Positions 3,446 to 50,077 of a stretch of DNA of 57,750 nucleotides are shown here, one piece after another. Source of the stretch: Clostridia bacterium. Lineage in GTDB: Bacteria; Bacillota; DUMD01. The translations under genes and the position numbers were made by a program. The notes under the pieces are model-generated. The model saw only the letters and a list, made by a program, of their open reading frames with translations. It made no database searches and was not told the DNA's origin. The DNA lies in contig DUMD01000024.1 of assembly GCA_012840065.1 (NCBI GenBank), positions 1-57,750 of the forward strand. The letters run 5' to 3'. The stretch's first letter is position 1; each line of letters starts with the position of its first letter.

Positions 3446-3592
3446 GCATAATAATACACAAATACCCTAGATAAAGCTAGGGTACGAACAAGTAGGACAA
3501 TCACAGCAACCGGCTGTCATAGACTTAAATAAGTCCTTAGACCCTTGGCTTTGCGTCCTGGGCTTTCGCCCAGTTTGCCTTTTTTGTACATC
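3446..3592 (-). promoter_or_regulatory. c-di-GMP-I (GEMM-I) riboswitch aptamer plus terminator-like expression platform in the flgB leader
   Basis: Minus strand reads GGCAAAC-UGGGC-GAAA-GCCCA-GGACGCAAAGCC-AAGGGUCUAAGGACUU-AUUU-AAGUCUAUGAC-AGCC. This shows the hallmark GGCAAAC, a GNRA-capped first hairpin, the ACGCAAAGCC junction and a second hairpin with CUAAG/UAUG tetraloop-receptor-like bulges. A hairpin ACCCUAG-CUUUAU-CUAGGGU (3464-3483) and a U-rich tract follow. Confidence 0.8.
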
Positions 3593-16783: not shown

Positions 16784-17779
16784 TTATTCTCCAGCTGCCT
16801 TCCGTACCATTGCTTGATGATTAGGATCAACTTTATTTGAACTATGAGTTTTACTACCTAAAAAGTGAAGATCAAAATGTCCATCCATTCCATTACCTTT
16901 TACTTTGTCTAAATTAGTTCCTGTTCCATAACCCCCACTTCTACCACTTACATTTACTCCGTAAGGTTTATCATCCCTCCCAGCATGAGGCATTCCAGCC
17001 ATAGATGCTGCAATTCTCCTGCCATTAACTGTAACAACTACTGCCCGCCTATTCCAACTCCAATTTCCTCCGTATATCCTCTTCATAATTTGTGTATCTT
17101 GCAAAGAAAGAGGTTCACAGTCTGCATGATTATAACCACCTGTTCTCCTAATTTGAAAACTCAGTCCAGTTTCTAAATCTGTTATAGTAGCTATACCATC
17201 CCGAGGAAAAATATTCTCGACTTGTCCAAACCAAGGAAGTAATTCCCCATAGCCTGGCTTTACTCTTTCTCCTCTGGAAACCTGACTGTCAGAAGGAACG
17301 ACAAGCTTCTGCCCAACTTGAAGCATAGTAGATTGTAAACCATTCAATTGGGATAAAGTGTCTACATCAGTATTAAATTTTTGAGCAATTAGCCAAAGAG
17401 TATCACCTTTTTCAACTATGTAATATGTAGTTTCCGATCTGTTTCCTCCCCTAGATGCTAAGTTGCTTTCTCCCGCGTTTTCTAATTTTTTCCAGGTTTG
17501 GGAACCAACAATTCCATCCACTTTCAACCCGTTGGCCCTTTGAAACTCCTTTACTGCCTCCAGAGTAATTGTTCCAAAATAAGCAGTTGGTTCAACGCGG
17601 AAATAATTTAATTCCCGCAGTCTTTCCTGTAAAATTTGGACATTTGTCCCTCTCATCCCAAACTTTAATAACTGCTGAGGAGCACTAAAGTTTGCTGCCA
17701 CAGCTTGTCCACCATGAAGACATGTAAAAAAAATAGACATATTTAAGCCTGCTACAATTAAAGATTTCTTAAAATTCAT
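16784..17779 (-). CDS. Secreted peptidoglycan-binding protein (PG_binding_1 + LysM + uncharacterised C-terminal domain), putative cell-wall hydrolase
   Basis: Signal peptide; PG_binding_1 repeat (GTNVQILQERLRELNY...FQRANGLKVDGIVGSQTWKKL); LysM (YYIVEKGDTLWLIAQKFNTDVDTLSQLNGL...GQKLVVP). The C-terminal ~170 aa contain His/Asp-rich GHFDLHF. Confidence 0.8.
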   Translation of the reverse strand: MNFKKSLIVAGLNMSIFFTCLHGGQAVAANFSAPQQLLKFGMRGTNVQILQERLRELNYFRVEPTAYFGTITLEAVKEFQRANGLKVDGIVGSQTWKKLENAGESNLASRGGNRSETTYYIVEKGDTLWLIAQKFNTDVDTLSQLNGLQSTMLQVGQKLVVPSDSQVSRGERVKPGYGELLPWFGQVENIFPRDGIATITDLETGLSFQIRRTGGYNHADCEPLSLQDTQIMKRIYGGNWSWNRRAVVVTVNGRRIAASMAGMPHAGRDDKPYGVNVSGRSGGYGTGTNLDKVKGNGMDGHFDLHFLGSKTHSSNKVDPNHQAMVRKAAGE

Positions 17780-17799
17780 AAAAACACTCCTCTCTTTAA

Positions 17800-17924
17800 G
17801 CCTACGAGGTTAGTTGACGGGTTCGGGAAAAGAGTAACCCGGCCGTAAAATACGGCTTCACCCCTGATCATAAGATCCTTATCCCCCGCTCCTTTAATAA
17901 GGATTCGGCATAAAACCCATGTGC
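17800..17924 (-). promoter_or_regulatory. ydaO/yuaA-type c-di-AMP riboswitch
   Basis: Minus strand reads ...GCCGAAUCC...AGGAGCGGGGGAUAAGGAUC...AGGGGUGAAGCCGUAUUUUACGGCCGGGUUACUCUUUUCCCGAACCCGUCAACUAACCUCGUAGGC. It carries the family signatures GAGCGGGGGA, GGGGUGAA and CCCGAACCCGUCAxCUAACCUCGUAxGC, and ends ~20 nt before the ATG. Confidence 0.85.
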
Positions 17925-19320: not shown

Positions 19321-22041
19321 ATGAAAAAAGAAAAATGGTACACCCTTCCTACTCAAAAGATCGTTGAAACTATAGGCACCCATTTAAATAATGGACTCAG
19401 TAGTGAAGAAGCACAAGAACGGCTTAAAAAATATGGGCTTAATGAGCTTAAAGGAAAAGAACCACCAACAATTTGGCAACTTTTAATGGAACAATTTAAG
19501 GATTTTTTAGTACTTATTTTAATTGCTGCAGCCTTAATTTCTGGTCTTTTAGGTGAATGGGTGGATACAGGAGCAATTATTTTAATCGTAATTATTAACG
19601 CCATTTTGGGAGTTAGTCAGGAAATAAAAGCAAACAAAGCTTTGGAAGCCCTGCAAAAGATGGCTGCTCCTACTGCTAAGGTTATTAGAGATGGTCAACA
19701 TATCGAGATTCCCGGCAGAGAACTGGTGCCAGGCGATATCGTTTTATTGGAAGCTGGAGATTATGTTCCTGCCGATATTCGTTTAACCGAAAGTGTAAAT
19801 TTAAAAATTGATGAAGCAGCCTTAACAGGAGAATCAGTACCAGCAGAAAAAAACGCTGAAATAATATTTGACAGAGAAATACCCCTGGGGGATAGAGAAA
19901 ATACTGCCTATATGGGGACAGTCATAACCTATGGAAGAGGGCAGGGAATAGTTGTGGCCACAGGAATGAACACAGAAATCGGACTAATTGCAGAAATGCT
20001 CGAATCTTATGAAGAAGGAGACACCCCTCTTCAACAAAAATTGTCAGCATTAGGTAAAACTCTGGGAATTGCAGTTTTAGTTATTTGTGCCATCGTTTTT
20101 GTTACAGGACTTCTAAGAGGAGAAAAACCACTGAATATGTTTTTAACAGCTGTCAGTCTAGCTGTTGCAGCAATCCCTGAAGGGCTACCTGCTATTGTTA
20201 CAATAGTTTTAGCCTTGGGTATGCAAAGAATGGTTGCTGTTAATGCTATTGTAAAAAAGCTACATGCAGTGGAAACACTGGGTTCAACCACAGTAATCTG
20301 CTCAGACAAAACTGGAACGCTCACTCAAAACAAAATGATGGTCGTCCGTCTTTACACTGATAATAAAATCATTGATGTTGACGGTAAAGGCTATAACCCC
20401 CAAGGAAATTTCACTATTAACGGTGGGAAAATTGATCCCAATAGTGACCCTAATCTCTCTCTACTTTTAAAAGCAGGCGTTTTATGCAATGATTCCAGAA
20501 TGGAAAAATCAGGGGAAAGCATCGATGGTAAAGAGCAATGGAGAATTATCGGTGACCCTACAGAAGGAGCTTTAATTGTAGCAGGTGCAAAGGCTGGATT
20601 ATTCAGGGAAGAATTAAATCAAAAAAATCCAAGAAAACAAGAGATACCATTTGATTCAGACCGCAAAATGATGACCACATTTAATGATAAAGGTAGTGGT
20701 AAAGGATATTATGCTTTTACCAAAGGTGCACCGGACATAATGTTGGCACTAAGCACCAAAATTTTGGATCATGGCAGGGTAAGAGAATTAACTTCCGAAG
20801 ACCGGGAAGCTATAATGAAGGTTAATAGCGATATGTCCAATCAAGCTCTAAGAGTGTTAGCTTTTGCCTATAAAGAATATGAAGAAATTCCAGCAGATTT
20901 ATCACCTGAAAATGTAGAGAAGGATTTAATTTTTATTGGCCTCATGGGAATGATCGACCCAGCAAGACCTGAAGCCAAAGAAGCTATAGAAATTTGTAAG
21001 CGTGCCGGTATTCGTCCAATTATGATAACCGGGGACTATAAAAACACAGCTGTGGCAATAGCTAAAGAATTAGGCTTAACCCAAGGCGAAAATAAGGTAA
21101 TGGAGGGCGCTCAACTTGATAAAATCTCTGATGATGAACTAATAAATAAAGTAGAAGATATTGATGTATATGCCAGAGTATCTCCCATACACAAAATGAA
21201 AATCATTGAAGCTCTCAAAGCCAAAAATCACATTGTCGCTATGACTGGAGACGGTGTTAATGACGCTCCTGCTCTTAAGCGGGCGGATATCGGAGTGGCC
21301 ATGGGAATAACCGGTACCGATGTGGCTAAAGAAACAGCTGAAATGATTCTGACCGACGATAATTTTGCCAGTATTGTATCTGCCGTTAAAGAAGGTAGGA
21401 TTATTTATTCCAACATTCGCAAATTTGTATTTTTCCTCCTTTCCTGTAATATTGGAGAAGTGTTGATTATATTTGTCTCGATTCTTTTAAATCTACCAAT
21501 TCCTTTAGTACCTATTCAACTTCTTTGGATAAATTTATTAACCGACGCCTTCCCTGCTTTAGCTTTAGGAATGGAAAAAGCAGAACCTGATATAATGAAC
21601 GTTCCTCCTCGGGATCCTTCTGCACCAATACTGAGCAGAAAAATGTCAATAGGGATTGTTATTCAAAGTATAGTGCTAACAATTGCCACTTTAGGTGCTT
21701 ATCTCTATGGTTTAAATACTTACGGTTTCACTGGAGAAGGTCTGAAAGAAGCACGTACAATCGCTTTCCTTACCTTAACTATCGGAGAATTATTAAGAGC
21801 ATTTTCTAATCGTTCAGAAAGATTTTCAGTATTTAAAATCGGATTTTTCTCCAATAAGTTCATGAATTTAGGAACAGGACTATCCTTTATACTAATCATT
21901 ATAACTGTTCTTATTCCTCCTCTTAGAACAATATTTGAAACTGTTCCTCTGAATCTTGAAGAAATTGAAATAATTATCGGCTTTGCTTTATTACCCTTTA
22001 TTGTAACAGAAGTAAGCAAGATATTTTTAAAAAATGATTAA
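19321..22041 (+). CDS. P-type (P2A, SERCA/YloB-like) cation-transporting ATPase, probably Ca2+
   Basis: 906 aa. Cation_ATPase_N start, TGES actuator motif, phosphorylation site CSDKTGTLT, hinge [12 protein letters not shown], 10 TM pattern; strong RBS AAAGGAGG. Confidence 0.92.
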
Positions 22042-35475: not shown

Positions 35476-37014
35476 ATGTTAGCGAAGGTTTTAAGTTCCA
35501 CTCTCAGCGGTTTAAAAGGCAAAATAATTGAAGTTGAAGTTGACATTTCAAGCGGGCTACCCGCCTTTGATTTAGTTGGTCTACCCGATAATGCCGTTCG
35601 GGAAGCTAAGGAAAGGGTTAGAGCTGCCATTCGCAACTCCGGTTTCGATTTTCCTATGAAAAGAATAACTGTTAATTTAGCACCAGCTAATACAAGAAAA
35701 GAAGGTTCAGGATTTGATTTAGCCATTGCTTTAGGTATCCTCATTGCCAGTAAACAACTAGAAAGCAAACTAGAATATCCTGACTTTATTTTTCTTGGAG
35801 AACTTTCTTTAGATGGAACATTACGACCTATTCATGGGATATTACCTATAGTAACCGAACTGGTTGATCAGGGAATAAAAAATATTGTTCTCCCTGCAGG
35901 CAATGCACGGGAAGGAGCACTAATTAAAGAAGCCAAAATTTATCCAGTTTCCGAGCTTAAAGAAATAGTTGGCTTTTTGCAGGGGGAATTTGGGATTACA
36001 CCTTTTATCTATGATCTAGACGAGATTATGAAAACTTACGAAGAAAAACAGGATTTGGATTTTTCCGAAATCAGAGGCCAGAGTCAAGTAAAAAGAGCAG
36101 TAGAGGTAGCTGCTGCTGGAGGTCATAACTTAATCATGATCGGTCCACCAGGCTCAGGAAAGACAATGATTGCACAAAGAATACCAACTATCCTTCCTCC
36201 CCTAACCTATTCCGAAGCTATTGAGGTCACCAAAATCTACAGCATAGCTGGTATGCTACCAGAAAATACTAGCATTATTTTATCTCGGCCATTTAGGACC
36301 CCTCATTACACAATATCAACATCGGGGTTAGTAGGAGGAGGAAAGAATCCAAAACCGGGAGAAATAAGTCTTGCACACAAAGGAGTCTTATTTTTAGATG
36401 AACTACCAGAATTTCATCGTGACGCTTTGGAAGTACTTAGACAACCATTAGAAGACAATCAGGTCACCATAGCCAGAGTAGGAGGAAAAGTAACTTATCC
36501 GGCTGACTTTATGTTTATTAGCAGCATGAATCCTTGTCCCTGCGGTTTTTTGGGAGATCCAAATAACCAATGTAATTGCAGCCCTTATCAAATTCAAAAA
36601 TATATGAACAAAATATCTGGTCCCCTATGGGATAGAATTGATATTCATATAGAAGTAGGAAGGTTGGAATATAAGGATCTTAGCAGTAAGATTGAAGGAG
36701 AAAAATCAGCTGAGATAAAAAAAAGAGTGGTTAAAGCCCGCGAAATTCAAAAAAATAGATTTAAAAAGAGTAAAATCCTAACCAATTCTCAAATGACAGT
36801 CAAGCAAATCAACAAATACTGTCAATTGACTCCCGAGGGAGAAAAACTTTTAAAAGATGCCTATGCCAAACTTAACTTAAGTGCCCGGGGATATAATAAA
36901 ATTTTAAAAGTTGCCCGCACTATTGCTGACTTAGCCGATTCCGAAATAATTGAACCTACCCATTTAGCTGAAGCTATTCAATATAGAAGCTTAGATCGCA
37001 AATATCAATTCTAA
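35476..37014 (+). CDS. comM: Mg-chelatase-like AAA+ protein YifB/ComM
   Basis: Lon-protease-like N-domain (GLPAFDLVGLPDNAVREAKERVRAAI), Walker A GPPGSGKTM, FLDELPEF, C-terminal Mg_chelatase_C. Confidence 0.93.
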   Translation: MLAKVLSSTLSGLKGKIIEVEVDISSGLPAFDLVGLPDNAVREAKERVRAAIRNSGFDFPMKRITVNLAPANTRKEGSGFDLAIALGILIASKQLESKLEYPDFIFLGELSLDGTLRPIHGILPIVTELVDQGIKNIVLPAGNAREGALIKEAKIYPVSELKEIVGFLQGEFGITPFIYDLDEIMKTYEEKQDLDFSEIRGQSQVKRAVEVAAAGGHNLIMIGPPGSGKTMIAQRIPTILPPLTYSEAIEVTKIYSIAGMLPENTSIILSRPFRTPHYTISTSGLVGGGKNPKPGEISLAHKGVLFLDELPEFHRDALEVLRQPLEDNQVTIARVGGKVTYPADFMFISSMNPCPCGFLGDPNNQCNCSPYQIQKYMNKISGPLWDRIDIHIEVGRLEYKDLSSKIEGEKSAEIKKRVVKAREIQKNRFKKSKILTNSQMTVKQINKYCQLTPEGEKLLKDAYAKLNLSARGYNKILKVARTIADLADSEIIEPTHLAEAIQYRSLDRKYQF

Positions 37015-44282: not shown

Positions 44283-44972
44283 TCAATAGACTAAAAATTC
44301 ATACCCACAATTATTACATCTTTGGCTGTAGCCCTTAGTATCTTCCGTTAAAAATTGCCTGCCAATCTGTTCCACCTCATCCTCACCGCAGCATGGACAA
44401 TAAAAATCCCAACAAATTCCCCATTCTTCATATGAAATCTTTTTTATTTTCGGCGGTTGTTCAGGTCTTCCTCCAAAATAATGATAGTAAAGCCAATTGT
44501 TCAGATTAATTTTCTGTTGTCGGCAGTTAAAAAGCCTGCAGGATGTAGGTTTAACAGGATGAATGATACACTTATGCGACCTATCATCCCAGAATATACA
44601 ATGTCCCCCGGCAGCAGTTATCTGTGAAACCACAAAGGGGTATTTATCTTGAGAACAATAAATTTTTTGAGAGTCTTCCCGATAGAAATCCCCATTTTTA
44701 TTAGAAAGAGGAACAAGGCGTTTACCTTCCTTAGAAATAACTGCCGGCGTCCAAAACCAGTATTTCTCCCCAAAAGGCTGCCTATAATCCATAACTAAGT
44801 ACTTACTTGTTAAAGCACTTTCATCAATTCCTAAAAAACGAGCTAATTTTTGAATAGCTTCATCATCGCCGGGCAAAAAGAAACCTGGCAAATTCCGACA
44901 GCATTTGCCGCATCTATTACACTCAAAACTTTCCTGTAACTTAAAAACAGATTCTAAGTTTAAATCAAACAT
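44283..44972 (-). CDS. YkgJ-family (CxxCxxCC) zinc/iron-chelating Cys-cluster protein with additional C-terminal zinc-ribbon
   Basis: N-terminal CNRCGKCC motif, central HCIFWD...CIIHPVKPTSCRLFNC, C-terminal CPCCG...CNNCG. Confidence 0.65.
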   Translation of the reverse strand: MFDLNLESVFKLQESFECNRCGKCCRNLPGFFLPGDDEAIQKLARFLGIDESALTSKYLVMDYRQPFGEKYWFWTPAVISKEGKRLVPLSNKNGDFYREDSQKIYCSQDKYPFVVSQITAAGGHCIFWDDRSHKCIIHPVKPTSCRLFNCRQQKINLNNWLYYHYFGGRPEQPPKIKKISYEEWGICWDFYCPCCGEDEVEQIGRQFLTEDTKGYSQRCNNCGYEFLVY

Positions 44973-44993
44973 AAAATCTTCTACCCTTCTGGC

Positions 44994-45827
44994 CTAAATT
45001 AAATTTAATATTTTTGCCGCATTTCTGCCTAAAATCTTCTTCTTACTTTCCTCTGATAGAGGCAATTGTCTAATTGTTTTTATATTCTCCGCAATATCAG
45101 GCATACCAGGCCAGTCTGAACCAAAAATTATTTTATCAGCATTTCTTTCGAATTCTGGGAAATAGGTTAATAATTTTTGAGGTGGTAAGCCAGATATTTC
45201 CATAAAAACATTTTCATGAAGTTTAGCCAAGAAAAAAGCCCGGTCATACCAAAAACCTCTCCCGCTATGCACAATAATAATTTTTAGATCAGGAAAATCT
45301 ACAGCAACATCGTCCAAATAAAGAGGATCACCATATTTTAAACGAGAACCTTTAAATATTGAGGAGCCCATGTGCAGCATAACCGGTATTTGATACTCTT
45401 CAGCAACTGCATAAATAGGATAGATAGAAGAATCATTAGGATAATAATGTTGATAAGTAGGATATAGTTTCAGCCCCTTAAATCCATATTGCGTAATTAA
45501 ACGTTTAAGCTCTTTAGCCGGATTAGGCAACAAAAAGGGATTTATACTGGCAAAAGGAATCAACTCTTCATAATCTGAACAAAACTCTGCTACTTTCTCA
45601 TTAGTTATAATCCCCGTAGTTATGGGACTTTGCTCTGCCAAAACAACTCCGTAATCAACTCCAGATTCTTTTAAATGCTGAACAAATTTTGCTGGATCAG
45701 AATAAGTATCTAAGCTCAATCTAGGTTGTTTTTGATATGAACTGTTAATCCATTCCATAACCCAAGGTTGAACCGGGTCATATTCGCTCATAATATGGAT
45801 ATGGAAATCTATCACCAAATCTTTCAT
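44994..45827 (-). CDS. Amidohydrolase_2 (TIM-barrel metal-dependent hydrolase/decarboxylase) family protein
   Basis: DFHIHIMS (HxH), ...MLHMGSS..., IIIVHSGRG, FGSDWPG metal-ligand pattern. Confidence 0.78.
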   Translation of the reverse strand: MKDLVIDFHIHIMSEYDPVQPWVMEWINSSYQKQPRLSLDTYSDPAKFVQHLKESGVDYGVVLAEQSPITTGIITNEKVAEFCSDYEELIPFASINPFLLPNPAKELKRLITQYGFKGLKLYPTYQHYYPNDSSIYPIYAVAEEYQIPVMLHMGSSIFKGSRLKYGDPLYLDDVAVDFPDLKIIIVHSGRGFWYDRAFFLAKLHENVFMEISGLPPQKLLTYFPEFERNADKIIFGSDWPGMPDIAENIKTIRQLPLSEESKKKILGRNAAKILNLI

Positions 45828-45865
45828 AATCTAAGCCTCCTTTATTTTCCCAATAATTAGTGCGT

Positions 45866-46267
45866 TTACAAATAATATCCGCAGGAAGTACTATCAAAAG
45901 CTCCTTTTATTAATTCTATCAATTCATTACCCGGCAACTGCTGAGGTGAGGAAACTATACTAATTACATCAAAGCGGCAATTGACATCCTTTAAACCTTT
46001 TTCCTTGATATAATTAAGAGAAGTCTGGATTATTTTTCTTTTTTTCAAGCCAGTAATAGCTTCTGAAGGGTAACTAAAAGCTAAACTACTCCTTGTTTTT
46101 ACCTCAATAAACACCAAACATTTTTTATCATAAGCGATCAAATCAATTTCCCCATATTTGCAGCGATAATTCCTATCCACAATTTTATATCCCTTTTGCT
46201 TTAAAAAACCTTCAGCTAAAGATTCTCCATATCTACCAAAAAAATTTTTAGACAAATTATCACCCAC
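45866..46267 (-). CDS. yraN: YraN family (UPF0102) endonuclease-like protein
   Basis: GESLAEGFLKQKGYKIVDRNYRCKYGEIDLIAYDKKCLVFIEVKTR canonical motif; GTG start abuts the stop of the HD-GYP gene. Confidence 0.88.
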   Translation of the reverse strand: MGDNLSKNFFGRYGESLAEGFLKQKGYKIVDRNYRCKYGEIDLIAYDKKCLVFIEVKTRSSLAFSYPSEAITGLKKRKIIQTSLNYIKEKGLKDVNCRFDVISIVSSPQQLPGNELIELIKGAFDSTSCGYYL

Positions 46268-47317
46268 CTATATTTCAATCACCTCAGTAATAAGCACATT
46301 TAAGTGCTTAGTCAAATCAATTTCTTCTTCACTATCAATGATTCTCACAATCGGTCTGGAATTAGCGCCTCTATTTTGATCAACAACTATTCCTACTTGT
46401 CCCGTAGTAAGTCGCACAATTGATCCATTAGGATAGAGAGCAATGTTTCTCAGAAAAGTAGTTACTATCTTTTCCTCCAAATGGGTTCCACTACTGGCCA
46501 TAATAATTTCAGCCGCTTCGTGCGGTAAAATTCCCTTTCGATATGGTCTATCCGTTACTAAGGCATCATAAACGTCGGTTAAAGCAACAATTTTAGCAAA
46601 TTCATGAATATCTTTACCACTAAGACTTCGAGGATATCCTGTTCCATCTACGTGCTCATGATGCTGGTAAGCAACATGAGCAACTAAACTGCTAATTTCA
46701 TCATGCTGTCGAATAATATTAAATCCTTCTTCAGGGTGGGTCTTTATCAGCTCAAATTCTTCTTTAGTTAAAGTACCAGGTTTATTAATCAATTCTTTAG
46801 GAATTTTACACTTTCCCACATCGTGAAGTATGGCACCTAAAGCTAAATCCCTTAACCTTAGTTGATTATATCCTAAGGCAATACCAATAACTGTAGACAT
46901 CACGCAAACATTTACACTATGTCCGTAAGTATACTCATCTACCGCTCTAATATCGGATAATCCTATAAGCACACCCTTATTATACAGAATCTCATCAACA
47001 ATATCATTAACTATTTTTTTTATTTGTTTAAGGTCTTTGCTAGTTAATTTACCATTTAACTGAACGTTCTTTAAACTTTCTCTCATTATTCTTACTGACT
47101 CAATGCGGGTTGTTTCTTGAACTAAATCCGGAACCACAATTCCTTCCGATATACTATCTTCAATATATACATACGGTATTCCAAAATCCTTCAGTCTTTT
47201 AATATACCTCTCTTTAAGCTGGATTCCCGCACTTAAAAGCACTGTTCCATCTGCCCCGTATATGGTTTTAGCCAGTTTTTCGCCTGGTTTAACCAAAGCC
47301 ATTGCAACCTTTCTCAT
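46268..47317 (-). CDS. HD-GYP domain protein (putative c-di-GMP phosphodiesterase)
   Basis: HSVNV...LHDVGK...HPEEG...HHEHVDGTGYP...DVYDALVTDRPYR; N-terminal ~120-aa uncharacterised domain. Confidence 0.88.
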   Translation of the reverse strand: MRKVAMALVKPGEKLAKTIYGADGTVLLSAGIQLKERYIKRLKDFGIPYVYIEDSISEGIVVPDLVQETTRIESVRIMRESLKNVQLNGKLTSKDLKQIKKIVNDIVDEILYNKGVLIGLSDIRAVDEYTYGHSVNVCVMSTVIGIALGYNQLRLRDLALGAILHDVGKCKIPKELINKPGTLTKEEFELIKTHPEEGFNIIRQHDEISSLVAHVAYQHHEHVDGTGYPRSLSGKDIHEFAKIVALTDVYDALVTDRPYRKGILPHEAAEIIMASSGTHLEEKIVTTFLRNIALYPNGSIVRLTTGQVGIVVDQNRGANSRPIVRIIDSEEEIDLTKHLNVLITEVIEI

Positions 47318-47340
47318 TTCCTACCCTCCGCAAACAAAAA

Positions 47341-47631
47341 CTAGTCTGTTTTATCTTTTAGCCCGTCCTCTAGGGTAAAAATAAAACTAAATATTTCAGC
47401 AATAACCCGGTAAAACTCAGGTGGCACTTCCTCACCTAATTGAAGTTTTAATAATTTATCAACTAATTCTTTATCTTTATGTACTGTAATTCCATATTCT
47501 TCAGCAATACTAATAATTTTTTCTGCTATGATCCCTTTACCTAAAGCAACAACCCTTGGTGCATTATCAGTCTCAGAATCATAGGACAATGCCACTGCTT
47601 TACGATAAAATGATTGATTATCATTAGTCAT
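47341..47631 (-). CDS. FlhB C-terminal-domain-like protein (EscU/YscU/HrcU switch-domain family, YlqH-like)
   Basis: 96 aa. KAVALSYDSETDNAPRVVALGKGIIAEKIISIAEEYGITVHKDKELVDKLL...EVPPEFYRVIAEIFSFIF aligns by eye to the FlhB segment immediately after the NPTH autocleavage site. No TM region and no NPTH. Confidence 0.85.
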   Translation of the reverse strand: MTNDNQSFYRKAVALSYDSETDNAPRVVALGKGIIAEKIISIAEEYGITVHKDKELVDKLLKLQLGEEVPPEFYRVIAEIFSFIFTLEDGLKDKTD

Positions 47632-47667
47632 TTTCTCGACCTCTTTGACTCAATTTTGACTTAATAA

Positions 47668-49107
47668 TTAAACCGAAAGATCAATCCAATTATACTGTAT
47701 TTTATCCGGGTCATCTAGCCTTTTCTCAAGACCATCTGAAAATTTCATTTCTGTACAATAAATTTTATTGTTAAAATAACCAAGCTTATTAAAAACGCTG
47801 TTTAAACCAGGCAATGATTGTCTTAACAATTCCAGATATTCTTTATTTTTTAAACCAAAATGAATTATAAGCTCTTTTTGATCATTACAACTAATATTTA
47901 TTTGTATAAACCCCAATCTATCTAATTCTAGTTGCATAGTCACCCTAAAAACATTTTGCTGTCCACTGTTTTTAATCCTTTTTTTAAATTTCAACTCTAT
48001 TTTTGCTTCTCTTTCCTTAAATTCATAATAAAATGGGATAACAAACACAAGCTGATTCCAATCATCTTTGATTCCTGTTTTTAATGGAGGAAGATTAATC
48101 AATTTTTGGGCAAATAAATGTTCGATAATTTGTTTGATTATTTTTTCTGAAGCTTGTTCTTGCTCTGGATTGCTCATTTTCCAAACTGCCGAGGTTTCAT
48201 TTAAAACATCAATAAGAACAGATAACAACTGTTTTTCTACCTGTTTTTCTACCTGTTTTTCTACCTGCTTTTCTACCCTTCTTTCCCTCTCCATCAAATT
48301 TTGAATTTCACTAACAGTCTGATCTTCATTAGAAATAATCCCTAATATCTTTAGTTTAGTCTTAAAATTTTCTGCCTTTGGCTCGAAGGTATCGATCAAT
48401 TCTTTTAAAAGCCAGTTGAGTTCATCCATTGCAGAATTATTTTTTACTTTATCTATCTGTGATTCTAAAAATAAGACCTTCTTAAGCACAGCTAACGATG
48501 AAGCCAGATTGGTTTTATTATTTTTAACTTCGTTTATTAAGCTAAGCAACTTACTATTTAAAGGTATTCCTCTTTCTTGGCAGAAAGCCAAAGTTTGAAT
48601 TAATTCTTTCAAATAACTGTCGTCATGCCTACTGTTTTTAACAGCACAACGGGCAACTAGTGATATGTTGTCCCTCATTAAAGGCATTTTACTATTGTAC
48701 ATCAACTCCACTATTTTTTTAGTTAAATCATTGTCAGGCAAATCCAAAGTTTTAAGAACCTGGTTAAAATCACTTTGCCCCCTAGTGTTTTTCAGAAAAT
48801 CAAGCGCAGAATTATTAGCCTGCCCAAGTCCCAAGTCATCTAATATCCGCACCATAACCTGACCTTGCCGGTTAATACCAGTAACGATAGCAAAAAACTT
48901 CTTACCGGGAAAAAAGTCTTTTCCTTCAATAAATCCAGTTACTTGGGCAGAAAATACCAACCCTTTCAAACTTAAAAGAATTTTTTCACCTTCAACCTCT
49001 AAAATAGTTAAGGATACCGGCTGGTTTACATATTTAAAAAGAAGGTCATAATTATCTGTTGAATTGAAAATCTGGCCGGTAAAAACTAAATTCAGTGAAT
49101 TTATCAT
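47668..49107 (-). CDS. FliK-like (flagellar hook-length control, Flg_hook-type C-terminal domain) protein
   Basis: 479 aa. The C-terminal ...RVTMQLELDRLGFIQINISCNDQKELIIHFGLKNKEYLELLRQSLPGLNSVFNKLGY matches the L.L.P..LG.v.v.i...l.v.f......l...l..L...L...G pattern; internal (VEKQ)4 repeat. Confidence 0.6.
   Translation of the reverse strand: MINSLNLVFTGQIFNSTDNYDLLFKYVNQPVSLTILEVEGEKILLSLKGLVFSAQVTGFIEGKDFFPGKKFFAIVTGINRQGQVMVRILDDLGLGQANNSALDFLKNTRGQSDFNQVLKTLDLPDNDLTKKIVELMYNSKMPLMRDNISLVARCAVKNSRHDDSYLKELIQTLAFCQERGIPLNSKLLSLINEVKNNKTNLASSLAVLKKVLFLESQIDKVKNNSAMDELNWLLKELIDTFEPKAENFKTKLKILGIISNEDQTVSEIQNLMERERRVEKQVEKQVEKQVEKQLLSVLIDVLNETSAVWKMSNPEQEQASEKIIKQIIEHLFAQKLINLPPLKTGIKDDWNQLVFVIPFYYEFKEREAKIELKFKKRIKNSGQQNVFRVTMQLELDRLGFIQINISCNDQKELIIHFGLKNKEYLELLRQSLPGLNSVFNKLGYFNNKIYCTEMKFSDGLEKRLDDPDKIQYNWIDLSV
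48229..48276 (-). repeat. In-frame 12-nt tandem repeat x4 (CTGTTTTTCTAC; last unit has 1 mismatch) encoding (VEKQ)4
   Basis: Read directly: ctgtttttctac ctgtttttctac ctgtttttctac ctgcttttctac. Confidence 0.95.
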
Positions 49108-49255
49108 AAATTCACCACCTTTGGTAAACCTAATCTTTAATATCTAGGGCAAAATAAAAAATTTATCTGGCAGCAGGAAAATTTATTTAAAGATATGATT
49201 CACCCCCCTCTTAAAATGAAGGGGGATGAAATCATTAACAGCCGACGAATAAATT

Positions 49256-50077
49256 TTATGTATTGCTGACAGTTTTTGAGTTCAATATTTGTTGTACAGG
49301 CTCATAACTTTTGCGATGGATAGGACTCACTCCCAACCTTTTAAGAGCTAAGAGATGTTCTTTAGTACCATACCCTTTATGGCGGGCAAATCCATACCCC
49401 GGATAAAGGAGGTCCATTTTTTCCATAATTCTATCCCTTGTTACCTTTGCCAAAATTGAAGCAGCAGCAATACTTGCACTTTTTTGATCCCCTTTTATAA
49501 TCCCCTTTTGAGCGATACAAAGACCGGGAATTGTTAAACCATCAACCAATAAATATTCAGGATAAATTTTTAAGTTATTTATTGCTTTTTCCATAGCTAA
49601 ATAAGTAGCTTGAACAATATTAATCTGGTCAATAATTTCATGACTAACCTGGCCAATACCATAAGCAATGGCATTTTCAATGATTTCAATATAAAGCTTA
49701 TCTCTTTGGCGAGGAGTTAATTTTTTAGAATCATTCAAATTCTCGATTAGACAATCCTGAGGAAGAATCACTGCAGCAGCAATTAGAGGACCAGCTAGAG
49801 GTCCCCGGCCTGCTTCATCCACTCCTGCGATAATTTTATAACCGCGCTGTTTAACTTCAGCTTCATATCTATAAAGATGATGCAGACGTTCACTTTCCAG
49901 TAGTTTTTTTTTCAACTCTTTTTCCCACTGCTTAGCCAGATTTTTAACGCCGCACCTGGGATCGGATCTCAACCGACCAAGGATTGCAGTTGTAATTCTA
50001 AAAGAATTTTGGTTTAACCACTCCTTTATTTCCTTCACCGTCATCATATCAAAATTCTGCATACAATCTTCCCCCAT
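49256..50077 (-). CDS. rnhB: Ribonuclease HII
   Basis: IAGVDEAGRGPLAGPL active-site motif, ...DSKKL..., ...VDG...; follows rbgA as in Bacillus. Confidence 0.93.
   Translation of the reverse strand: MGEDCMQNFDMMTVKEIKEWLNQNSFRITTAILGRLRSDPRCGVKNLAKQWEKELKKKLLESERLHHLYRYEAEVKQRGYKIIAGVDEAGRGPLAGPLIAAAVILPQDCLIENLNDSKKLTPRQRDKLYIEIIENAIAYGIGQVSHEIIDQINIVQATYLAMEKAINNLKIYPEYLLVDGLTIPGLCIAQKGIIKGDQKSASIAAASILAKVTRDRIMEKMDLLYPGYGFARHKGYGTKEHLLALKRLGVSPIHRKSYEPVQQILNSKTVSNT

Follow-up and report, generated by a model that had tools for sequence, protein, structure and literature searches.

A fliK2-flhX pair between rnhB and yraN in an uncultured Bacillota, accompanied by a lineage-specific HD-GYP gene

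Six tightly packed genes on the minus strand of a 57,750-nucleotide (nt) stretch of DNA from a Clostridia bacterium (contig DUMD01000024.1, assembly GCA_012840065.1; the whole stretch is termed ‘the window’) bring together a FliK-like gene, a gene for a free-standing piece of FlhB, and a gene for an HD-GYP protein of the kind that degrades cyclic dimeric GMP (c-di-GMP). A preliminary description of this DNA, prepared from its letters alone, proposed that all six genes form a single flagellar accessory module. The reading that we favour, to which we assign a probability of roughly 55%, is narrower: the region would be an ancestral Firmicute rbgA-rnhB-fliK2-flhX-(yraN) array that has received an HD-GYP gene in one lineage, and the functional unit within it would be the two-gene fliK2-flhX pair, acting at the flagellar export gate. 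That pair is ancient, is found across phyla and is associated with flagella. The lineage with the insertion is a narrow group of uncultured Bacillota from anaerobic digesters, and short contigs identical to the window sequence are present in biogas-fermenter assemblies. The six genes, in the order in which they would be transcribed, are the following:

47668 to 49107, minus strand: fliK2-type gene (ylqG-like), 479 amino acids, Pfam Flg_hook
47341 to 47631, minus strand: flhX (ylqH-like), 96 amino acids, matching Bac_export_2 over its C-terminal end only
46268 to 47317, minus strand: gene for a predicted stand-alone HD-GYP phosphodiesterase, 349 amino acids, HD_5
45866 to 46267, minus strand: yraN (UPF0102), predicted nuclease-fold protein, 133 amino acids, NF009154
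44994 to 45827, minus strand: Amidohydro_2 family metal-dependent hydrolase, 277 amino acids, Pfam
44283 to 44972, minus strand: CxxCxxCC (YkgJ-type) cysteine-cluster protein, 229 amino acids, Pfam

The 96-amino-acid protein is, as judged from its sequence, FlhX, a free-standing homologue of the post-cleavage (CC) fragment of FlhB. It matches positions 262-335 of the 335 in Bac_export_2, the last 74 positions of this FlhB/YscU model (E = 5.7e-18), and its best-scoring NCBIfam model is TIGR00789 flhB_rel (COG2257), at 105.7 bits against a cutoff of 117.35, which it does not reach. The N-terminal four-helix membrane domain of FlhB is missing (there is no transmembrane domain in the 96 residues), as is the NPTH autocleavage motif: FlhX has MTNDNQ where FlhB and SctU have TNPTH or TNPVH, and its alignment to those proteins begins just past the cleavage site. 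In the PDB, a profile of the FlhX family best fits the 87- and 114-residue B chains of 3b1s and 3b0z (from Aquifex and Salmonella FlhB-C structures). An alignment that starts beyond NPTH, together with matches to these short B chains, thus marks FlhX as a soluble copy of FlhB-CC. The preliminary description had proposed soluble copies of both FliK and FlhB-C; both are indeed soluble paralogues, with the refinement that the FlhB-like protein represents the post-cleavage fragment only. Homologues of similar length number 71 and occur in Bacillus, Thermotoga, Sulfurihydrogenibium, Desulfatibacillum and Epsilonproteobacteria.

The sole recognisable domain of the 479-amino-acid protein, termed FliK2 here, is Flg_hook (PF02120; residues 376-450, E = 1e-9, 38.5 bits versus a cutoff of 29.8). 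It therefore possesses the C-terminal T3S4 (Flg_hook) domain of a FliK, which is the part by which FliK addresses FlhB-C. It does not occupy the position of a FliK, within the flagellar operon and beside flgD and flgE; that canonical place, before flgD, is held by a separate Flg_hook protein of 444 amino acids on the same contig (L047, 15746-17080), and a BLAST comparison of the 479-residue FliK2 with this protein found no similarity. A fla operon with FliK in its canonical place indicates that the organism is a flagellated Bacillota with a genuine FliK of its own.

Full-length homologues of FliK2 are scarce (one by a word-index search, and four at E<1e-3 by an exhaustive HMMER search of 1.84 billion proteins), and the protein is too divergent for a family to be built from its sequence, so the neighbours of FlhX were used instead. 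The proteins of FliK2 type that were gathered in this manner follow a common plan: a small beta domain at the N-terminus, then a helical region, and the T3S4 domain at the C-terminus; in FliK2 the first two of these do not resemble FliK. The N-terminal domain has the pattern G..l.A.V......L...G......a......G..l.l.V; it corresponds to residues 1-100 in the window (48808-49107), is common to 17 other loci in several phyla, and was not found in genuine FliK. A conserved, folded N-terminal domain that is unlike FliK argues against FliK2 being a secreted ruler. A profile of the domain reaches E = 7.9e-11 to Rrp5 in the PDB, a value that is the sum over many weak matches to S1 repeats, and its best single-domain E-value is 0.2; in Pfam, three of 18 members match TOBE and the S1 matches are marginal. 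Assignment to a firm OB/S1/TOBE barrel was accordingly rejected as falling below per-domain significance, and the resemblance is kept as a weak likeness on which nothing is built.

FliK2 also diverges very fast, as is typical of FliK-type proteins: it is 33% identical to its orthologues in two related Logan metagenome contigs (L010 and L044), compared with 56-76% for flanking proteins. A four-fold tandem repeat of 12 nt that encodes VEKQVEKQVEKQVEKQ lies at about 48232-48279, in the helical middle of the protein (residues 277-292), and its position is a gap in L010.

Evidence that these two genes belong together comes from their conservation as a pair. Loci carrying FlhX were gathered from public genomes and assemblies, with a genome scan that used a 10-sequence FlhX alignment. 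Flg_hook was found in the gene directly upstream of free-standing FlhX at 27 of 33 loci, spread over several phyla; three of the FliK2-type neighbours also match Pfam HpaP. The fliK2-flhX arrangement is seen in Clostridia, Tepidanaerobacter, Halanaerobium, Thermotoga, Desulfobacterota and Oceanospirillaceae, and the window conforms to it, with the Flg_hook gene co-directional and immediately upstream across a gap of 36 nt. Three exceptions are Campylobacterales loci, at which a riboflavin-synthase-like gene precedes flhX. The wider surroundings of the pair vary: it is isolated in Tepidanaerobacter, Halanaerobium, Thermotoga and Oceanospirillaceae, is embedded in flagellar clusters in Desulfatibacillum and at one further locus (L128), and flhX adjoins fliP in a Rickettsiaceae metagenome-assembled genome (MAG). 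In the window the pair lies 44 kb from the fla operon. Every named host that was checked is flagellated; a single candidate for a non-flagellated host, Tepidanaerobacter acetatoxydans, turned out to be flagellated as well.

Among Clostridia the position of the pair is far more constant. The order (rbgA-)rnhB-fliK2-flhX was found at ten Clostridia loci, two of which end upstream of rnhB (the loci listed come from five Lachnospiraceae, Ruminiclostridium, a Bacillota MAG, a Clostridiaceae MAG, an Eubacteriales MAG and two Epulonipiscium), and yraN follows flhX directly in nine of the ten. Gaps along rnhB-fliK2-flhX-yraN are mostly 7-26 nt, with frequent overlap of flhX and yraN. Past yraN the genes differ freely, and include a response regulator, PgeF, an rRNA methylase and an M19 dipeptidase. 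In Bacillus sp. HNG the order is rbgA-rnhB-(198 amino acids)-flhX-sucCD-dprA-topA-xerC-hslVU, which bears out the suggestion in the preliminary description that the window genes sit at the site of B. subtilis ylqG/ylqH, downstream of rbgA-rnhB. These comparisons lead us to conclude that the rnhB-adjacent position of the pair is the ancestral one in Firmicutes and that yraN is part of that synteny; yraN is thus best described as a conserved syntenic neighbour of rnhB and flhX in Clostridia, and not as a flagellar gene. The window belongs to a 248-kb JGI metagenome contig, which reads ffh-rpsP-rimM-trmD-rplS-lepB-rbgA-rnhB, the six genes and then liv-type transporter genes; farther along it come dprA-topA-trmFO-xerC-hslVU-codY, followed by flgB-flgC-fliE-fliF-fliG-fliH-fliI-fliJ-x-FliK-flgD-flgE.

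The HD-GYP protein has a strong HD_5 match (E = 2.3e-32) and carries both LHDVGK and HHEHVDGTGYP, and thus the HD dyad and the HHExxDGxGYP motif. Its residues H133, H165/D166, H194, H219/H220 and D248 align with their counterparts in 4mcw (PmGH) and 5z7c (V-cGAP3). The enzyme is probably active, and is most likely an ordinary c-di-GMP phosphodiesterase. Its best match in the PDB is an enzyme specific for 3'3'-cyclic GMP-AMP (cGAMP); because the organism possesses a c-di-GMP riboswitch, c-di-GMP would be the likelier substrate, with cGAMP as a further possibility.

The family to which this protein belongs is large (1383 proteins at E<=1e-30, of which the best matches listed are near full length and mostly from Firmicutes), and its placement between flhX and yraN was found only in the window and in L010 and L044, whose copies are 73-74% identical to that of the window. 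The next-closest homologues, about 50% identical (from Heliorestis convoluta and from a 104-kb contig), lie in unrelated neighbourhoods. A metagenome scan with a 19-sequence alignment yielded 80 further HD-GYP loci (661 kb), and no homologue of FlhX, FliK2, YraN, RnhB, Amidohydro_2 or CxxCxxCC was found at any of them. Conversely, a phmmer search with the window HD-GYP against the other FlhX loci (about 30) returned nothing, save a divergently transcribed gene three genes away in Thermotoga. The HD-GYP gene is therefore regarded as a lineage-specific insertion between flhX and yraN. A recent horizontal insertion was also considered and is not supported, since the GC content of the gene, both overall and at third codon positions, resembles that of its neighbours. 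Of the FliK-like, FlhB-C-like and HD-GYP trio whose co-occurrence had been put forward as a test, the first two are thus co-conserved, and the third, its catalytic motifs intact, is confined to three related contigs.

The remaining three genes of the cluster likewise match domain models. YraN exceeds the curated cutoffs of both of its models (NF009154, 121.7 bits versus 109; PF02021, 98.6 versus 23.6), and its more likely start is a TTG codon at 46255, which lies behind a Shine-Dalgarno-like GGTGGGTGA and 12 nt past the stop codon of the HD-GYP gene; this is judged from its relatives, whose N-termini fall four residues later than the GTG start. The amidohydrolase matches Amidohydro_2 at E = 4.6e-40, and the cysteine-cluster protein matches CxxCxxCC at 31.5 bits (cutoff 23) and matched no NCBIfam model. 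A possible resemblance of this sixth protein to FliB-type flagellin methylases was dropped, there being no such NCBIfam match. Contig L044 has all six genes and, after them, the same liv gene; L010 ends before the amidohydrolase gene is complete, and the CxxCxxCC gene is therefore confirmed in L044 only. Identities between the window and these two contigs are 69% for RbgA, 64-68% for RnhB, 58-61% for FlhX, 56-63% for YraN, 64-76% for the amidohydrolase and 56% for the CxxCxxCC protein. Neither an Amidohydro_2 gene nor a CxxCxxCC gene was found beside the pair at the roughly 30 other FlhX loci, and both genes are read as lineage-specific additions appended after yraN. Together with yraN they probably just accompany the pair as passengers within a dense run of housekeeping genes. 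The six genes as a co-conserved module, the central proposal of the preliminary description, do not survive this comparison: their arrangement is shared by the window, L010 and L044 only, and was seen at none of about 30 other FlhX loci and 82 other HD-GYP loci.

Several further features bear upon the transcription of the cluster or form its context:

49256 to 50077, minus strand: rnhB (RNase HII), Pfam RNase_HII, upstream neighbour outside the unit
49199 to 49230, minus strand: terminator-like hairpin after rnhB, with a 12-bp stem, six G-C pairs and a weak T tail
49163 to 49189, minus strand: sigma-28-like element, TAAA-N15-CCAGATAA
44149 to 44167, minus strand: terminator-like hairpin and T run, in a 169-nt spacer before liv-type ABC transporter genes
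3502 to 3589, minus strand: c-di-GMP-I riboswitch upstream of flgB, Rfam RF01051

The six co-directional open reading frames at 44283-49107 are separated by gaps of 36, 23, 0, 38 and 21 nt, the third of which becomes 12 nt with the TTG start of yraN, and a Shine-Dalgarno sequence can be seen before all of the genes but yraN. Their coordinates, together with matches in Pfam and NCBIfam, bear out the genes, domains and spacing first described, and a terminator scan likewise found no terminator-like site in any of the internal gaps. The six genes may well lie on a single transcript, of which the hairpin at 44167-44149 is a possible 3' end. In this window, though, such spacing is unremarkable: the minus strand carries 49 of the 54 genes called, no more than 40 nt separates the genes at 24 of 45 same-strand junctions, and the functionally mixed run dprA-topA-trmFO-xerC-hslV-hslU-codY is spaced as tightly as the six-gene cluster. 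Since unrelated housekeeping genes are packed equally closely, tight spacing is uninformative in this window, and, more generally, close packing of co-directional genes is not in itself a sign of a functional module in this genome.

The sigma-28-like element noted in the preliminary description is present (at 49189-49163, with a spacer of 15 nt), and departs from TAAA-N15-GCCGATAA at two positions, one of them inside the CGA core. Matches of equal quality number 17 in the window, against 8.9 +/- 3.1 expected from shuffled sequence. The element is weak, and both it and the hairpin upstream of fliK2 are absent from L010 and L044. The gap between rnhB and fliK2 is 25 nt in L010 and 55 nt in L044, so that the window's spacer of 148 nt (49108-49255), with its strong hairpin, is far longer; either it grew locally in the window or it contracted in the relatives. 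Sigma-28-like elements are not enriched in the 300 nt before fliK2 at the 30 loci compared (seven matches with two or fewer mismatches, versus about 4.5 expected), and the better matches are at proteobacterial loci, which fits the Pseudomonas data described below. A scan for sigma-70-like promoters gave 22 matches versus 27.6 in shuffles, fewer than chance, and was uninformative. The simplest reading for the Firmicutes is that fliK2-flhX are co-transcribed with rbgA-rnhB, and the transcript in L010 and L044 would probably include those two genes as well. Partial insulation of the cluster by the hairpin is possible in the window, where the weak sigma-28-like element is no more than a candidate promoter.

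A separate and perfect match to the sigma-28/SigD consensus, TAAAGGGTAATAAAGCAAAGCCGATAA, with no mismatches, lies at 21974-22000 on the minus strand, within the 3' end of a gene for a P-type cation ATPase (19321-22041) and antisense to it. A perfect 12-base match of this kind is unlikely by chance in 57.7 kb; no obvious minus-strand open reading frame was found downstream of it.

The c-di-GMP-I riboswitch just upstream of flgB, also recognised in the preliminary description, scores 82.5 bits against a gathering score of 35, and suggests that flagellar transcription in this organism responds to c-di-GMP. A mechanism may be sketched for the reading that we prefer. FliK2 would bind FlhX in the cytoplasm through its C-terminal T3S4 domain, by analogy with FliK and FlhB, and the pair would then act at the export gate of the flagellum. 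It would do so either by standing in for FlhB-CC as a spare or alternative copy, as reported for H. pylori FlhX, or as a non-secreted modulator of the switch, as Xanthomonas HpaC acts on HrcU-C. The HD-GYP enzyme, if co-transcribed, would lower c-di-GMP and relieve the riboswitch, with read-through into the flgB operon as the outcome. On these terms the HD-GYP gene and the pair would plausibly constitute a loose pro-motility grouping, as opposed to a physical coupling of the export switch to c-di-GMP turnover.

A number of observations weigh against so restrained an account, or against parts of it. The FliK-FlhB paradigm is the sole basis for the proposed binding of FliK2 to FlhX, and the AlphaFold2 model of FliK2, computed from a two-sequence alignment, has a mean pLDDT (predicted local distance difference test) of 39.6, too poor to be used for a fold search, so that its secondary-structure outline alone is quoted here. 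The HD-GYP, amidohydrolase and cysteine-cluster genes have kept their places among contigs whose housekeeping proteins are just 56-76% identical, and such retention could reflect selection for the arrangement. In nine deltaproteobacterial MAG loci (L004, L014, L018-L023 and L025) the order is PilZ-PilZ-fliK2-flhX, and Thermotoga sp. SG1 (L009, 2169-5546) has two HD_5 genes less than 4 kb upstream of the pair. Given the PilZ genes in a second lineage and the Thermotoga HD-GYP genes, the pair may have a real link to c-di-GMP. The PilZ proteins are two paralogues of about 230 amino acids, encoded on the same strand directly before fliK2, about 2.5 kb upstream of flhX, and they associate the pair with c-di-GMP receptors independently of the HD-GYP insertion. 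One of the two Thermotoga HD_5 genes is fused to dCache, and one is on the opposite strand.

The most ambitious interpretation of these linkages is that fliK2-flhX is a cytoplasmic checkpoint at the export gate that has been wired to c-di-GMP repeatedly, through an HD-GYP protein in this Bacillota lineage and through two YcgR-sized PilZ proteins in a clade of Desulfobacterota. If that were true, expression of the pair would lower c-di-GMP and feed back on flagellar transcription via the flgB riboswitch. We consider it decidedly unlikely: the HD-GYP insertion and the PilZ variant are hints, not proof, that the pair is related to c-di-GMP control of motility. The model of the preliminary description, in which all six genes form a late-flagellar module that is driven by sigma-28 and couples the FliK/FlhB-C pair to c-di-GMP degradation, is unlikely too. 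It gains from the close spacing and lack of internal terminators, from the presence of a sigma-28-like element in the sole sizeable upstream spacer, from the FliA dependence of fliK2-flhX in P. putida, from the riboswitch before flgB, from the retention of the arrangement in L010 and L044, and from the deltaproteobacterial PilZ genes. It is countered by the two mismatches in the element and by the absence of that element from relatives in which fliK2 begins 25-55 nt after rnhB, by the lack of enrichment of such elements at other loci, by the free variation of the genes past yraN among Clostridia, and by the fact that no HD-GYP gene stands between flhX and yraN at other FlhX loci, nor FlhX at the other HD-GYP loci examined.

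Two further explanations would remove the pair from flagellar function altogether. In one of them, the Firmicute pair has been co-opted for a non-flagellar role linked to housekeeping, is co-expressed with rbgA, rnhB and yraN, and uses an OB/S1-like barrel to bind nucleic acid or a cytoplasmic ligand. In favour of such a role are the unvarying position of the pair between rnhB and yraN (gaps of 7-26 nt, or overlaps), the weak S1/TOBE/OB-like signal in the conserved N-terminal domain of FliK2 and the lack of a convincing SigD promoter. That signal, however, is below per-domain significance, members of the family are found within flagellar clusters in other phyla, the named hosts that were checked (T. 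acetatoxydans among them) are flagellated, and in Bacillus-type genomes this chromosomal stretch leads into the fla/che operon; such a role is improbable. The other explanation, which takes the pair for the functionless and decaying remnant of a flagellar locus that was once duplicated, and the cluster for an accident, would account for the low identity of FliK2 relative to its neighbours and for its near lack of full-length homologues. Yet both genes are intact open reading frames at every locus examined in several phyla, their domain architecture is conserved, FlhX is still 58-61% identical between the relatives, and genuine FliK proteins also evolve fast, all of which make a relic highly improbable.

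Two features of the window lie apart from these questions. A cyclic dimeric AMP riboswitch (RF00379, 86.6 bits; 17785-17920, minus strand) stands directly upstream of a cell-wall gene with PG_binding_1 and LysM domains (16784-17779), and comM (Mg_chelatase family; 35476-37014, plus strand), about 9 kb from yraN, is one of only five genes on that strand, of the 54 called in the window.

Few genes that are both widely conserved and associated with flagella still lack a known function, and flhX and fliK2 belong to this group. The fixed position of the pair beside rnhB in Clostridia and Bacillus, with yraN on its other side in most Clostridia, offers a clear genetic target in B. subtilis ylqG/ylqH, and the role of FliK2 and FlhX is better approached in B. 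subtilis or Pseudomonas than through the locus described here. The pair, which corresponds to ylqG-ylqH in Bacillus, was already known and had been named fliK2-flhX, a point that the preliminary description did not note; what is new is the six-gene variant of the order in this lineage.

The closest described system is that of P. putida, in which PP_4328/PP_4329 are fliK2-flhX, form a FliA-dependent class IV operon and have no function assigned (bioRxiv 10.1101/2021.08.29.457346; the name FlhX is from Pallen et al. 2005, as cited in that preprint). There, as in the window, a protein that has the FliK C-terminal domain only is encoded directly upstream of an FlhB-CC homologue of about 90 amino acids. 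The P. putida pair lies in a flagellar cluster under FliA control, whereas the window pair is distant from the fla operon, has no convincing sigma-28 promoter and is followed by an HD-GYP gene. Other comparative papers count FlhX among flagellar components. The likeness to B. subtilis ylqG-ylqH, shown via Bacillus sp. HNG, is one of position, downstream of rbgA(ylqF)-rnhB. In B. subtilis, ylqH (BSU16080) adjoins sucC (PMC4448311); in Bacillus sucCD follows ylqH, with no yraN, HD-GYP, amidohydrolase or cysteine-cluster gene there, and the upstream protein of HNG has just 198 amino acids. Literature searches on ylqG and ylqH turned up no functional study.

The remaining comparisons concern the individual proteins. 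FlhX of H. pylori (HP1575) is, like that of the window, a free-standing homologue of FlhB-CC, and is reported to sustain some export after deletion of FlhB-CC (Wand 2006 and Smith 2009, both cited in bioRxiv 10.1101/2021.08.29.457346); in Campylobacterales (three loci), flhX differs from that of the window in following a riboflavin-synthase-like gene and not fliK2, and in having no linkage to HD-GYP. For FliK2 acting upon FlhX or FlhB-C, the working model is Xanthomonas HpaC, set beside FliK2 by description: according to the account in PMC3040844, it is a secretion substrate switch protein that binds HrcU-C, a C-terminal domain of the FlhB/YscU family. HpaC, however, is an injectisome protein, and HrcU, its partner, is full-length and membrane-bound as opposed to a soluble fragment. 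Finally, the HD-GYP protein resembles the stand-alone enzymes PmGH (4mcw), Bd1817 (3tm8) and V-cGAP3 (5z7c) in combining an HD_5 domain with the HD and HHExxDGxGYP motifs, and differs from known stand-alone HD-GYP proteins in its position beside flhX, which is unique to this lineage.

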